64,000 bases of DNA from Methanobacteriota archaeon (GTDB taxonomy: Archaea; Thermoplasmatota; E2; DHVEG-1), in assembly GCA_026394495.1 (NCBI GenBank), contig JAPKYE010000072.1:1394-65393 (forward strand), written 5' to 3'. This document shows positions 37,079-41,308 of this stretch, piece after piece (the stretch's first letter is position 1; the number at the start of each line of letters is the position of its first letter). The position numbers were made by a program, and so were the translations under genes. Under the pieces are notes generated by a model. The model did not search any database and was not told the origin of the DNA. It saw nothing but the letters and a program-made list of their open reading frames with translations.

Positions 37079-37142
37079 CGCCGTCCGCCGTATGCAAACC
37101 TTGGGTATAGTTTATACCATCAAGAATGGTGAGAAAAAGGGA
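37079..37142. repeat. Cassette junction: tRNA-Asn core plus left arm
   Basis: 12-bp core plus 52 bp matching 39941-39992 at 46/52. Confidence 0.9.
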
Positions 37143-37411
37143 CGGTTTTGATATCTTTTTCCTATTATTTAACGTAACTTATGTTTTGTACTAATGGATC
37201 CTTTACATTCTTACAGAATTTCGAATCGATTTAAAGCCACTGGGGGAAATAATGAGCATAATTAATAGCTCGCAGAAAAAACAGCTATAATGTGCTTTAA
37301 CGGTAGATAATTAAGTGATTGAAGCCCCTTTTTACAAAAATTATAAATATAACATCCGGTGTAAAATAAATACTGAGAATAGAGACGGATAATTTACATT
37401 TAAATTCTTAT

Positions 37412-38770
37412 ATGACTAAAAGTTGGAACGGGGGAAGTAAAATTAAACTCAATAAAGCAAATGATAGTACACTCATTGGATTTTTCCCGATCTTTTGGAG
37501 TACGGGAGAAACCATTCCTTTAATAAAAATTGCTCAATCATATATGAAACAGGGTGGAAAAGCAGTATTCTTTAGTCATGGCGGTAAATATGAATATATG
37601 GCGGAAGACATTGGTTGTGAAGTTATTTACCTAAATAGTTGGTGGAAAGATTATTTTCGTAAAGGAAAAAAATTGATAGAAAATGGGGTGAAGGCTGAAA
37701 AATTCTTTACTAATCAATTTGATGAAAAGTTTATTGAAAAATCTATCAAAGAAGAAAAGGAAGCGTTTCAAAAAACTGGTGTTAAATTAATTGTTAATAC
37801 CTGGAATTTAACCTGTAGTATTTCTACAAGGGCTCTTCACATACCTCTTGTTGTCGTCATTTCAGGAACAACCATCCCACCTTATTTTAAATCAGGTTTT
37901 GTGACGTTTCCAGATAATTATGAAAATATGTTTACGAAAATGTTCCCAGCATATATTAAAAATCGTTTTACACAATGGTTTTTATTAAATAATAAATTAC
38001 TTGTACGACGATTTAACAAATTTTCGAAAGAATATAATATTTCGTCGTTTAAATGTTTAAATGATATTATTTTAGGAGATCATAATTTTGTATGCGATGA
38101 CATACATTTTTTAGGATTGACACCAACGAAAGAATTTCCTTTAAAAAATTATATTGGCCCAATTTTTCATGGAAATATCCTAAAAGAACAACAGGAACAT
38201 ATAAACCAAGATATTATGAATCATTTGAAAAAACCAAGGAAATCTATTCTCTTATCTATGGGGAGTATTCCCGACAGGCATTTATTTTTAAAGGTTTTAA
38301 ATGCACTTAACGAAACAGAGTACAATGTGATTGCGATATATACAAAGACGCTGAAAAAAGATGAACTACCGAAAACTGGTGAAAATATCCTTCTTCAAGA
38401 ATTTGTGCCCTCAGTAACTAATCTTCTGAAACAGGTCGATTTAGCGATTATCCATGGTGGACGTGGCACTGTATACTCAGTCGCATACTCAAGCAAACCT
38501 GCGATTGGGATACCAGCGTTATATGAACAACAATACAATATTGATTGTCTTGTACGACATGGATCAGCGATTAAACTTTCAAAAAAATATTTTAACCAAA
38601 AATATTTACTTAAAAATATCAATTATATTTTTAATCATTACTCAACATTTTATGAAAATGCTAAAATTTTAGCAACAAAACTTACTAAAGATTGCGGGGA
38701 AAAAAGAGCATCTGATAGACTTGTTCAGATAATCAATTCAAATCAAGGATTTACAAAGGTATCTGAATAA
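37412..38770 (+). CDS. GT-B fold glycosyltransferase (GT1/GT28-like)
   Basis: LSMGS, FVP...L...DLAIIHGGRGT, P...EQ..N. Confidence 0.88.
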   Translation: MTKSWNGGSKIKLNKANDSTLIGFFPIFWSTGETIPLIKIAQSYMKQGGKAVFFSHGGKYEYMAEDIGCEVIYLNSWWKDYFRKGKKLIENGVKAEKFFTNQFDEKFIEKSIKEEKEAFQKTGVKLIVNTWNLTCSISTRALHIPLVVVISGTTIPPYFKSGFVTFPDNYENMFTKMFPAYIKNRFTQWFLLNNKLLVRRFNKFSKEYNISSFKCLNDIILGDHNFVCDDIHFLGLTPTKEFPLKNYIGPIFHGNILKEQQEHINQDIMNHLKKPRKSILLSMGSIPDRHLFLKVLNALNETEYNVIAIYTKTLKKDELPKTGENILLQEFVPSVTNLLKQVDLAIIHGGRGTVYSVAYSSKPAIGIPALYEQQYNIDCLVRHGSAIKLSKKYFNQKYLLKNINYIFNHYSTFYENAKILATKLTKDCGEKRASDRLVQIINSNQGFTKVSE

Positions 38771-38796
38771 AAGGACTATCATAATTTTTCATTGAT

Positions 38797-39849
38797 TTAT
38801 CTAATAATTATAACGTCAAAAAAATGAAGAGGTGGGATATTTGCGAGAGATAAAATGTGATATAATGCACAGCTTATATATACAGAAATTGTAAAGTAAA
38901 AAAGAAAAGAAATAAAAGAATGTTTTTTTGAATGAGAAATGTTTTTTGGTTTTGATTTATAGATACCGACGCCGACGCCTCCGAGTACAATGATAATGGT
39001 ACTGATGTAGTGCATAGAATATAGCAGTATAATAGGTATAATAACAAAAAGATGAATCCATATGAATATTTTTAACACTGTTTTTGTTGTATCGAGACCC
39101 GCCCATACTGCAAAGGTTGTAGTTCCACTTTTATTATCATAATCGTAATCAAGGATGTGATTACATATTTGAAATATGCAACTAAAGATTCCCGCAGAAA
39201 TTGCAACTAACAAAATGGTATTATTTATCTGACCGGTAAATAATGCTCCCCAAAGAATGATGAGAAAAAATCCAAAGAAATGCCAGACTATATCTATAAT
39301 AGGCCGTCCTTTTAACCGCAATGGTGGCGCTGAATACACCCATCCCATAAATAACAGGAGAATGCAAACAATGATTATTGTAATATCTTGATAAATAATA
39401 CAAAAAATTATTGGGATGGCGAGAAAAACTAAATTTAATATAATTTCGTTGATTTTCGAGATTTCTCCTAAGGCGAGAGCGTTAACGTTTCTCCTCCTCG
39501 GATTATTTTTATCTGATTCAATATCGTAATAATTATTTATAGCAAACGTAAATGATATGCTAAAAAATGTCGATATTGTAAATATTAATAATGAGACAAA
39601 ATATTTTGTTATTGATAGGATGGATATTCCCAATATAAACCCCAATAAAGATGTTGAAAACCAATAAGCAACATCTTTAATTCTAATTATCTCTGTAAGG
39701 AAAATAGATATTTTGTTTTTCTTCGGAATGGCTTTATTCAGCATATTTACATCGTTCCAAATGAAAATTGAATACTTGTATAAAAGATAAGCGTTCTTTA
39801 TCTTATTATTTTTTATGCTTCGGTTATAAAGAAACAATGAGATAAACAC
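38797..39849 (-). CDS. UbiA-family prenyltransferase
   Basis: NNYYDIESD, YSAPPLRLK, NHILDYDYD; likely start at MLNKAIP. Confidence 0.88.
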   Translation of the reverse strand: MFISLFLYNRSIKNNKIKNAYLLYKYSIFIWNDVNMLNKAIPKKNKISIFLTEIIRIKDVAYWFSTSLLGFILGISILSITKYFVSLLIFTISTFFSISFTFAINNYYDIESDKNNPRRRNVNALALGEISKINEIILNLVFLAIPIIFCIIYQDITIIIVCILLLFMGWVYSAPPLRLKGRPIIDIVWHFFGFFLIILWGALFTGQINNTILLVAISAGIFSCIFQICNHILDYDYDNKSGTTTFAVWAGLDTTKTVLKIFIWIHLFVIIPIILLYSMHYISTIIIVLGGVGVGIYKSKPKNISHSKKHSFISFLFYFTISVYISCALYHILSLANIPPLHFFDVIIIR

Positions 39850-39992
39850 GAAAAATCGGCGTTTACTTCAGAGTTCGGGTCCGTCTTTATAAAAAATACT
39901 GTTTAACAGAAGAAAAAGAGTGTTGGAGCGCCGTCCGCCGTATGCAAACTTAGGGTATAGTTTATACCACCAAAAATAGGGAGAAAAAGGGA
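39837..39992. repeat. Cassette junction: right arm, core and left arm (attP-like)
   Basis: Composite of both repeat arms around the tRNA-Asn 12-bp core. Confidence 0.9.
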
Positions 39993-39993
39993 A

Positions 39994-41103
39994 TCATATT
40001 TGAGGAACCGTTTTGGTAGTACAATGTATAGCACCACCTTGTTTGATTATCGAATTACAATTTATACCCCGCATCTCATATTCAGGCATTAATTGTTGAT
40101 AAATAGAAATCGCTTCAGCGTCTTCAACAGTATTATATTGCGGGATGAGAACGACTTTTTTATATGTTCCATTTATTATTAATGAGTTAGCATACGTCCA
40201 GACTGTTTGTCTATTTGAATTAGGATCTCGCAACATAGGAATTCTGACAACGTTGTAACCATGTTCTATAAATATTTTAGAATTATTTTCTAATATGTTG
40301 TAATTTATATCCTTTTGATCCTTGTATTGACCAACAAGAACCGTTTTATCATCCAGGAATTTTGCAAACATATCAAGGTGCCCCGATCCATCATTTATTT
40401 GCGATTCTAACACAATAAGTTCATCTAATCCTAAGGATTTTTTCAAATTATCTATAATTTTTTCTTTTGAATGATAGGGATTATCTTGAAAAATTCTATC
40501 AGTTGCAAAACCGACACCATGCCCATCAGTCATATAATTTCCACCTTGGATGGAAACAACAAAATTCGTATCAAACCTATAATCAATATGGTATCGAATG
40601 CCATAGAATGTTGGAAAAAAATTATCTAGAAACCTCCAGAGTCCATAGATATCGTATTTAAAGTCCACAATTGAGAGATGGTTATCCTCTTCGATAAAAA
40701 ACGAGCCGTAGTCAACAATCCAGATTGAATCTGTTGGTATCAACGTAAATGTAATATTTGTAAGAGGAACATTATTTGCCCGTAATTCTGATAAGACATG
40801 ATTTTTAATTATTTGATTATTTACAACGATGTTTACTGAAGTAGAATTCTCTGTCTCCTTTGTAATATTGATAAAATAAGATTCAACGATTCTATCTAAC
40901 GATTTCCACCATTTAGGCCAAGTAAGGATTAATTCTTTTACAGATTCAAACTCAGCAACAGAACGTATATTCTGAGATATATAAGAAGATGAAGGGTGTG
41001 GGGGATTGATCGTTGAAATACAATTAACAGAAGGGGGCGCAAGAATAAATACAACTGTTAATAATCCAATTATTGTCCCAAACTTATTCATAATCACACC
41101 CAA
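39994..41103 (-). CDS. Secreted agmatine/peptidylarginine deiminase (PPAD family)
   Basis: Signal peptide; AEFE, W..DYG, GGN, GHLD, TYAN, GGAIHC. Confidence 0.9.
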   Translation of the reverse strand: MGVIMNKFGTIIGLLTVVFILAPPSVNCISTINPPHPSSSYISQNIRSVAEFESVKELILTWPKWWKSLDRIVESYFINITKETENSTSVNIVVNNQIIKNHVLSELRANNVPLTNITFTLIPTDSIWIVDYGSFFIEEDNHLSIVDFKYDIYGLWRFLDNFFPTFYGIRYHIDYRFDTNFVVSIQGGNYMTDGHGVGFATDRIFQDNPYHSKEKIIDNLKKSLGLDELIVLESQINDGSGHLDMFAKFLDDKTVLVGQYKDQKDINYNILENNSKIFIEHGYNVVRIPMLRDPNSNRQTVWTYANSLIINGTYKKVVLIPQYNTVEDAEAISIYQQLMPEYEMRGINCNSIIKQGGAIHCTTKTVPQI

Positions 41104-41204
41104 TAATATATAGTTAGTTATATTTTAAATTTCTTGTGGCTGTTGAAAAATTTTTGGGTTGATGGATTAAGGGATCTGAACATCATTTTATTTATAAAAT
41201 ACTG

Positions 41205-41308
41205 ATGAGATAAATACGAAAAATCGGCGTTTACCTCAGAGTTCGAGTCCGTCTTTATAAAAAATATTGTTTAACAGAAGAAAAAAAGGTCCAAGACGCC
41301 GTCCGCCG
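41205..41308. repeat. Cassette junction: right arm plus core (tRNA 3' end)
   Basis: 77/81 match to 39837-39917; same 92-bp spacing to the core. Confidence 0.9.

Follow-up and report, generated by a model that had tools for sequence, protein, structure and literature searches.

Integrase-less cassettes in tandem at the tRNA-Asn gene of an uncultured archaeon, and related cassettes with constant ends across its family

How did two stretches of unrelated genes, neither encoding a recombinase, come to lie in tandem between exact copies of the end of one archaeal tRNA gene? We addressed this question for 64,000 nt of genome G000 (contig C117, positions 1394-65393; hereafter the window), whose 2.22-Mb assembly comprises 141 contigs and is 92.99% complete. 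The window contains three copies of the 12-nt 3' end of tRNA-Asn, and these bound two intervals, here called cassettes 1 and 2. A sequence-only reading had interpreted them as minimal non-autonomous circles, loaded with different genes and inserted one after another by an integrase supplied in trans, in an integron-like manner. We compared the locus with 108 genomes of the same archaeal family (40 genera) and with metagenome contigs. The 3' end of tRNA-Asn is a recurring hotspot of gene capture and no integron, and the two intervals are probably tandem, non-autonomous, tRNA-Asn-specific elements, similar to cis-mobilizable elements (CIMEs), that were placed by site-specific recombination.

The 12-nt core (CGCCGTCCGCCG) lies on the + strand at 37079, 39929 and 41297, exactly as first reported, with no further copy in the window. 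None of 100 shuffles of the window contained any match, and across the whole assembly the core is confined to these three sites. Because the third copy (41297-41308) falls at the end of an Rfam tRNA match (41297-41369), the core is the 3'-terminal 12 nt of tRNA-Asn. The features of the locus are listed below; L and R denote the arms that open and close each cassette.

37079..37090, no strand: distal core copy; its left flank is unrelated to the R arm
37091..37142, no strand: L arm of cassette 1, 52 nt
37412..38770, + strand: glycosyltransferase of cassette 1, GT28/UDPGT-type (Glyco_tran_28_C / UDPGT); NCBIfam matches all below cut-offs
38797..39849, - strand: UbiA-family prenyltransferase of cassette 1, convergent with the glycosyltransferase gene
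39824..39928, no strand: R arm of cassette 1, ~105 nt; core-proximal part T-rich on the tRNA strand (ACTCTTTTTCTTCTGTT)
39929..39940, no strand: middle core copy; with its flanks an attP-like R-core-L junction
39941..39992, no strand: L arm of cassette 2, 52 nt
39994..41103, - strand: PAD_porph/agmatine-deiminase-like protein of cassette 2, with a hydrophobic N-terminus
41192..41296, no strand: R arm of cassette 2; directly adjoins the 3' end of the tRNA and provides its trailer
41295..41370, - strand: intact tRNA-Asn(GTT); Rfam 69.7 bits at 41297-41369
41297-41308, within the tRNA: third core copy, the last 12 nt of tRNA-Asn, attB-like

The exact cores bound intervals of 2850 bp (cassette 1) and 1368 bp (cassette 2). 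The direct repeats equal the tRNA 3' end and the tRNA is regenerated, as in tRNA-targeting integrative elements. GC content is 29-33% in the cassettes versus 38-41% past the tRNA. When recomputed, the arm identities came out the same: 46 of 52 positions for the L arms, and 77 of 81 for the R arms over 81 nt beginning 92 nt before the core (87/105 over the full similar part). The last 11 nt touching the core differ between the two R arms (2/11 identical). The middle junction at 39929 is, as had been described, a complete attP-like site of right arm, core and left arm. With this junction between them, both intervals are built as expected of elements that entered one after another at the tRNA by site-specific insertion, in keeping with the order of events first proposed.

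The L arm resembles the tRNA sequence that lies across the core. In cassette 1 the arm opens with TATGCAAAC, and these 9 nt agree with the T-loop region of the tRNA (GACTCGAAC) at positions 2, 5, 7, 8 and 9. These five positions equal the T-loop in 14 of 14 L arms, and position 1 does so in none. The invariant positions (xAxxCxAAC) probably form an integrase half-site; such a pattern is what would be expected of a second half-site for the same recombinase.

In the R arm, the core-proximal ~25 nt (..GAGAAAAAAG..GGAG) are retained in G003 and G050, genomes without the remainder of R, and this part of the arm would replace the trailer and terminator of tRNA-Asn. We take L and the core to be candidate integrase binding sites and R a putative tRNA terminator. 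No Rfam family matched the R arm, and the only known RNA family in the region of the arms was the tRNA. One candidate origin of R, as the relic of an integrase gene, gained no clear support: 22 integrase C-termini matched none of 15 R arms in tblastn, and an R profile run against 30 integrase loci gave one marginal match (E 0.12), the end of the integrase gene at tRNA-Glu in the window. The R arms and the 3' end of that gene have a short motif in common (AACAGGAGAAAAAAGG; nhmmer E 0.07-0.12), and the shared motif ACAG[GA][AG]G follows 3 of 42 tRNAs in G000; this is only a hint that R may have descended from the end of an integrase gene. In G000 there are also two identical copies of tRNA-Phe on separate contigs (C68:1389-1433 and C5:22133-22208), and downstream of the copy on C68 stands a motif like that of R (..TTTCAACAGGAGAAAGAA..); tRNA-Phe may thus have a similar arm without an integrase. 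For the end of this tRNA, no repeat longer than 10 nt was found.

The cargo of the two cassettes is unrelated, and the gene families first named for it were confirmed, as was the distance of 1 nt between the stop codon of the deiminase-like gene and the L arm of cassette 2. The deiminase-like protein is plausibly secreted, given its hydrophobic N-terminus. The claim that neither cassette encodes a recombinase also stood. None of the three cargo proteins matched PF00589. A tblastn search of 37-41.3 kb with a relative's integrase (E<=100) returned short alignments only (E>=0.35), like those at ~150 other places in the window, and five integrases searched across the two cassettes gave E>=0.13 only, with no integrase domain or relic between the cores. 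No Int(N) or Int(C) fragments were found flanking the cassettes. As they encode no integrase, the cassettes are non-autonomous.

If the cassettes belong to a mobile family, homologous arms should enclose other cargo elsewhere. In the 108 family genomes we found 51 matches to the core, in 41 genomes, and inspected all of them. Thirty-eight are tRNA-Asn itself. In six the core is followed by the L arm (twice in G000, and once each in G018, G136, G143 and G146), in two by another shared arm (G052 and G146), and the remaining five are other, chance or contig-end cases. On the opposite side of the core, 12 of the 51 matches carry the R arm and five a shorter related form, R2. A scan of metagenomes with the L-arm pattern gave 13 contigs, one of which is the G018 contig and two of which are near-duplicates of one another; of their 13 L junctions, five are R-core-L and five R2-core-L. 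Complete cassettes running from L to R, of 1.4-6.5 kb, number five in all, two of them in the window. The other three are:

G018, 2604 bp: winged helix-turn-helix (wHTH) protein and unknown proteins
G143, 6453 bp: metallo-beta-lactamase (MBL) hydrolase, subtilase and peptidase A4
L115 (metagenome), 3049 bp: two UbiA genes

The cassettes of the relatives hold two to six genes, on both strands. UbiA genes recur as cargo, yet they are at most 31% identical. Homologous arms are thus found around unrelated cargo in other genera, as the sequence-only reading had led one to look for, and the tRNA-Asn locus, far from invariant, is hypervariable across the relatives. For instance, G132, G136 and G144, whose upstream flanks are ~91% identical, have an R arm, an integrase relic and an R2 arm, respectively. 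In a scan of genome contigs, the core-L pattern matched 24 stretches, of which four are the archaeal contigs already known; we read the 20 in bacterial records as chance matches of a GC-rich pattern. In viral contigs neither the core-L pattern nor the G143 integrase gave any match, and no free viral or plasmid form was found.

Across loci the cargo is mainly secreted or envelope-related (subtilase, papain-like and A4 peptidases, PKD-domain proteins, UbiA, glycosyltransferase, cupredoxin and a GSDH-like dehydrogenase), and it includes restriction-related fragments (McrBC, Mrr). A second left-arm family (..ATTGTA/ATATTG..GGGATTT..GATAAAACCCC.ATTTTTG.CCGTATCGATTTT.CCA) follows R-core in two genera, at loci L031 (G052) and L050 (G146:C42); the insert that it bounds in G052 has 3383 bp and codes for a PKD-domain protein of 1002 residues. 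In about ten of the 41 core-bearing genomes the contig ends within ~600 nt of the tRNA-Asn 3' end, and contigs of G133 and G106 end exactly at the core. Such breaks fit a strain-variable or repeated region that disrupts assembly. At two loci, L058 (G013) and L075 (G027), the tRNA-Asn gene is interrupted by extra sequence in the region of the anticodon loop. This is probably an intron; tRNA introns are usual in archaea.

Comparison of empty and filled sites shows that insertion at the tRNA-Asn core is precise. G144 has R2-core-tRNA, and G136, with the same flanks (88-91% identity), has 4450 bp between duplicated cores. The metagenome contig L116 is 98.6% identical to G144 across 4777 nt and then continues as core-L. 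Two further contigs bear on movement. L120 joins R (87 nt), core and L to 2355 nt of one cassette, 99.9% identical to the G018 cassette, and may represent a circle or a tandem copy. In L122, R (400 nt, 99.75%) and L (319 nt, 96.9%) ends like those of G018 are joined to different DNA on both sides.

Some cassettes may carry traces of older events inside them. In L115 (348-427/3124-3205, 80 nt) and in L028, the G018 locus (782-800/3130-3148, 19 nt; ..ACAGTGACA[T/C]GGTTT), the inner end of the L arm is repeated directly on both sides of the cargo, and in G059, G128 and G135 related motifs mark the left boundary of extended R arms. The repeated motif ('X') probably reflects fused older junctions, the simpler reading, and it may mark a second exchange site. 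As such a site it was set aside, since it is not seen in the window cassettes, whose scores lie within those of shuffles, and the breakpoints of L122 lie elsewhere.

Tyrosine integrases of one family are encoded in 67 of the 108 genomes, often in several copies, and their open reading frame (ORF) typically ends inside or just past the 3' end of a tRNA gene. In four genomes (G018, G130, G143 and G039) such an ORF runs into the tRNA-Asn core from the side opposite to the L arm. The G018 locus is arranged Int-core-L..R-core-tRNA, with the integrase stop codon 8 nt past the core; the motif with the catalytic Tyr precedes the stop by about 60 residues. Since only the last integrase codons cross the core, these genes are not of the 'suicidal' type of the Sulfolobus spindle-shaped viruses (SSV), in which att lies inside the int ORF and the gene is split into Int(N) and Int(C). 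L-armed elements occur in five genomes, and two of these (G018 and G143) have a tRNA-Asn-type integrase at the locus.

These observations suggest how the array might form. A tyrosine integrase, of the family encoded against the core in the four relatives, would recombine the attP-like site (R-core-L) with the end of tRNA-Asn, the exchange taking place in the 12-bp core or at its tRNA side. The product would be flank-core-L...R-core-tRNA, with the tRNA restored and R in place of its downstream trailer. Each insertion would remake the R-core-tRNA target, so that a next element could enter and the array grow; a later entry would give the window array with its attP-like middle junction. Distal cores would then erode and the genes become fixed. 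On balance we favor the view that the window cassettes moved as integrase-less units, with an integrase acting in trans or in cis from an accreted element. Because no tRNA-Asn-type integrase was found in G000, we infer rather than observe its supply in trans. A wider idea is more tentative, and we would not count on it: a lineage of mini-elements that lack an integrase, keep their L and R ends (~50-400 nt) constant and vary freely in cargo may circulate in sediment Thermoplasmatales-like archaea, loaded and excised at tRNA-Asn by the integrases of co-resident elements. It would serve as a capture platform for secreted and envelope enzymes, functionally analogous to integron or tycheposon islands and built from parasitic carriers of att sites.

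Several results weigh against the reading of the cassettes as non-autonomous mobile elements. No integrase ORF abuts the tRNA-Asn core in the 92.99%-complete G000 assembly; the three closest homologues there lie at or near other tRNAs (tRNA-Arg, the tRNA-Glu element, and one on contig C5). The genomes and contigs searched yielded no complete autonomous element in which an L arm is combined with an intact integrase. The sole candidate for the distal arm of an integrase-bearing tRNA-Asn element, the right end of G143 C106, is not L-like (3/10 T-loop matches). A search of G000 with the arms at E<0.1 returned this locus only. Identity of R between other genera and the window is 62-72%, not above that of coding flanks (65-67%), and conservation alone is therefore no proof of function. 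Five genomes (G059, G128, G132, G134 and G135) have R-core-tRNA without a second core in the assembly, a pattern that could equally arise if R were a resident flank or if distal ends had decayed. The contig L120 has no terminal overlap, so that a circle and a tandem copy look alike in it. Finally, the excised circles of 2850 and 1368 bp that had been predicted did not appear: assembled Logan contigs of four sequencing runs (X1-X4) held no excision, circle or empty-site joint, a weak negative given that such contigs drop rare variants.

Other elements are integrated near the locus as well. On the 5' side of tRNA-Asn lie KH-domain and RIO-kinase genes, syntenic in the relatives. On the other side, a conserved gene, here called gene X, is found 0.24-1.3 kb from tRNA-Asn in seven other genera, with unrelated spacers. 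In G000 it lies at 17634-18530, 22.8 kb from tRNA-Asn, and the gap is filled by an integrated element (18605-32401), a 4.7-kb block and the two cassettes. The element, of ~13.8 kb, lies between two exact direct copies of a 19-nt sequence (TATAATTTATGGATGCATA; 18605 and 32383; 0/100 shuffles) and has a XerA-like tyrosine integrase gene (18702-19955, - strand) at its left end. Its genes are mostly ORFans on the minus strand, with 28-34% GC; it sits between gene X and the decarboxylase block, at no tRNA, and is unrelated to the cassettes. Within one of its ORFs (29356-30015, 219 residues), a tandem repeat with a 45-nt period spans 29584-29993, with five copies listed at 64-75% identity to the reference copy. 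The 4.7-kb block (32.4-37.08 kb) holds decarboxylase, radical SAM and MarR-like genes; it was rejected as a conserved native flank because it is absent from those tRNA-Asn loci of relatives that were examined. A search for decayed arms in 18.6-37 kb gave only marginal nhmmer matches (R2 profile, E 0.04-0.06). Farther away, a 4.5-kb element (6359-10861) is integrated at tRNA-Glu, bounded by 16-nt direct repeats that match the 3' terminus of this tRNA. It comprises two ORFs without a Pfam match and a 459-residue integrase (9518-10897), whose ORF ends antisense inside the tRNA gene and whose last codons (..VNRRKKE) hold the motif common to the R arms. NCBIfam matches of the window integrases to XerA and 'integron integrase' were far below cut-off.

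The strongest alternative is that the cassettes are decay remnants only, each having arrived with an integrase, lost it, never moved without it and now become fixed. We consider this unlikely, although decay of ordinary elements evidently belongs to the history of the family. In G136, the L-armed, integrase-less element of 4450 bp ends in an integrase C-terminal relic beside a truncated McrBC gene. Of the 22 integrase C-termini searched, 12 matched the relic (best E 7e-8), and it implies that L arms were once part of integrase-bearing elements. An eroded core stands next to an intact L arm in L118, the G018 cassette contains an inner, degenerate R-like junction, and the missing cognate integrase of G000 would also follow from loss. 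Loss of the integrase is the explanation given for integrase-less archaeal elements, at least in the available part of PMC8371274. The R arms tell against such a history for the window cassettes. None of the 15 is matched by an integrase C-terminus, and a homologous non-coding R arm closes five cassettes of unrelated cargo, where independent deletions would not be expected to share their right end. The R-core-L junction of L120 and the arm-sharing chimera L122 are likewise hard to derive by decay in place. Among the relatives compared, neither window cassette was seen to be a remnant of one larger element.

R might instead be the resident chromosomal flank of tRNA-Asn, with the repeats produced by duplication or recombination of that flank. 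The five genomes with a lone R-core-tRNA are compatible with this, as are the preservation, in G003 and G050, of the ~25 nt adjoining the tRNA and the occurrence of R at the distal side of a differently armed insert in G052 and G146. Other observations speak against it. R stands beside the core in only four of 17 core-bearing genera (40 genera searched), and the spacers between gene X and the tRNA in the seven genera are unrelated. The tRNA-proximal arm differs even among the species with ~91% identical flanks. R also lies inside the arrays of G000 and G143, and the distal junction in the window is without R. We regard this explanation as quite improbable.

Still less probable is a true integron-like platform, with a resident integrase, folded cassette-specific sites and a common promoter. 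The likeness that suggested it is real: an ordered array of cassettes with constant recombination ends occupies one chromosomal site, and the G018 array has an integrase gene at its distal end. The window array, unlike an integron, has no adjacent integrase or attI, and no PF00589 signal was found in 37-41.3 kb; the nearest integrases in the window belong to the two other elements, each with its own direct repeats (19 and 16 nt). The site is a tRNA end and not a hairpin attC. RNAalifold predicted no pairs in 15 R arms, and the folding z-scores of the R-core-L junction are only -1.9 and -2.2. There is no common promoter with co-oriented promoterless ORFs: the cassettes are multi-gene with genes on both strands, and the two genes of cassette 1 are convergent. 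A promoter and terminator scan of the region relied on bacterial models and is uninformative for an archaeon. The 'integron-like' part of the initial proposal has therefore been dropped. Of the gene-capture system at tRNA att sites, what holds is the arms with varied cargo and the integrase at the same core in relatives; circles were not seen, and the integron features fail.

An assembly artefact or a recent duplication, conceivable in a metagenome-assembled genome in which repeats can be mis-joined, is negligible as an explanation because, as first argued, the arm copies have diverged (46/52, 77/81) and the cargo is unrelated, because a Logan contig of run X1, made with a different assembler, spans 36400-41356 with all three cores at depth 12 and 0 differences, and because other genomes show the same architecture. 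X1 is possibly the source sample, so this second assembly does not count as independent data; runs X2-X4 yielded mostly tRNA-like pieces.

We therefore return to tandem CIME-like elements as the probable nature of the two intervals, and compare them with systems already described. CIMEs retain att sites, are without integration genes and accrete in tandem at tRNA genes in streptococci (PMC5704250, in the part available). Similarly, the window cassettes retain attL and attR as exact 12-bp cores at both ends, have no integration or transfer genes, and lie in tandem at a tRNA 3' end. As in G018, such cassettes at times adjoin an integrase-bearing element, and decay is documented in G136. The Int-core-L..R-core-tRNA order of G018 is the one that excision with, or by way of, an accreted integrase-bearing element would require. 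The cassettes differ from CIMEs in their archaeal host, in that no conjugation genes are involved and any mobilization is putative, and in the conserved non-coding right arm common to cassettes of unrelated cargo. This shared R arm suggests a propagating non-autonomous lineage rather than one-off products of decay.

The islands formed by tycheposons in Prochlorococcus are also anchored at tRNA genes, and successive integrations push older elements inward; a tycheposon brings its own site-specific integrase, of the tyrosine or large serine recombinase type, next to its cargo and in many cases a replication module too (10.1101/2020.12.28.424599, as far as its accessible text goes). According to that text, the islands share with the present locus partial-tRNA repeats, scattered degenerate remnants and niche-adaptive cargo. 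The archaeal units, in contrast, are of 1.4-6.5 kb with constant non-coding ends, and neither integrase nor replication genes are found in the window cassettes; in the archaeal relatives, the integrase gene runs into the att core. Tandem ssrA-specific islands of Dehalococcoides (PMC3146451, in the portion available) are alike in being site-specific islands at a small-RNA gene. Transposons of the type of miniature inverted-repeat transposable elements (MITEs) are unlike the cassettes, whose ends are direct repeats of the tRNA end; no L-R pair is present among the 25 longest of 109 inverted-repeat pairs in the window.

Among archaeal tRNA-targeting elements the likeness lies in a tyrosine integrase aimed at the 3' terminus of a tRNA. 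She et al. (2001, 2002, 2004) reportedly described such integrated elements and 'gene capture' in archaea. The window cassettes differ from an autonomous element of this kind by encoding no integrase, and the relatives differ from SSV in that their integrase ORF crosses the core by its last codons only. Integrase-less integrated elements and tandem integration have already been described in archaea, and the available part of the same review of archaeal elements makes no mention of recurring L/R-armed cassettes (PMC8371274). Among the matches listed by a literature search on Thermoprofundales integrases, none was about such elements. The novelty lies in a family of small archaeal cassettes, all at a single tRNA, whose non-coding ends stay constant as their cargo varies.

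These uncultured sediment Thermoplasmatales-like archaea lack genetics, and descriptions of their mobile elements are scarce. At the end of tRNA-Asn there appears to be a hotspot, common to the whole family, at which glycosyltransferases, UbiA proteins, secreted proteases and PKD surface proteins come and go. Such a hotspot would account for strain-level variation in the repertoires of envelope and extracellular enzymes, as well as for the frequent assembly breaks at tRNA-Asn. Should the cassettes indeed be mobilized in trans, archaea would have in them an equivalent of the CIMEs and satellites of bacteria, and their compact set of attP, attB and integrase (a 12-bp core with short arms) would be a candidate genetic tool.

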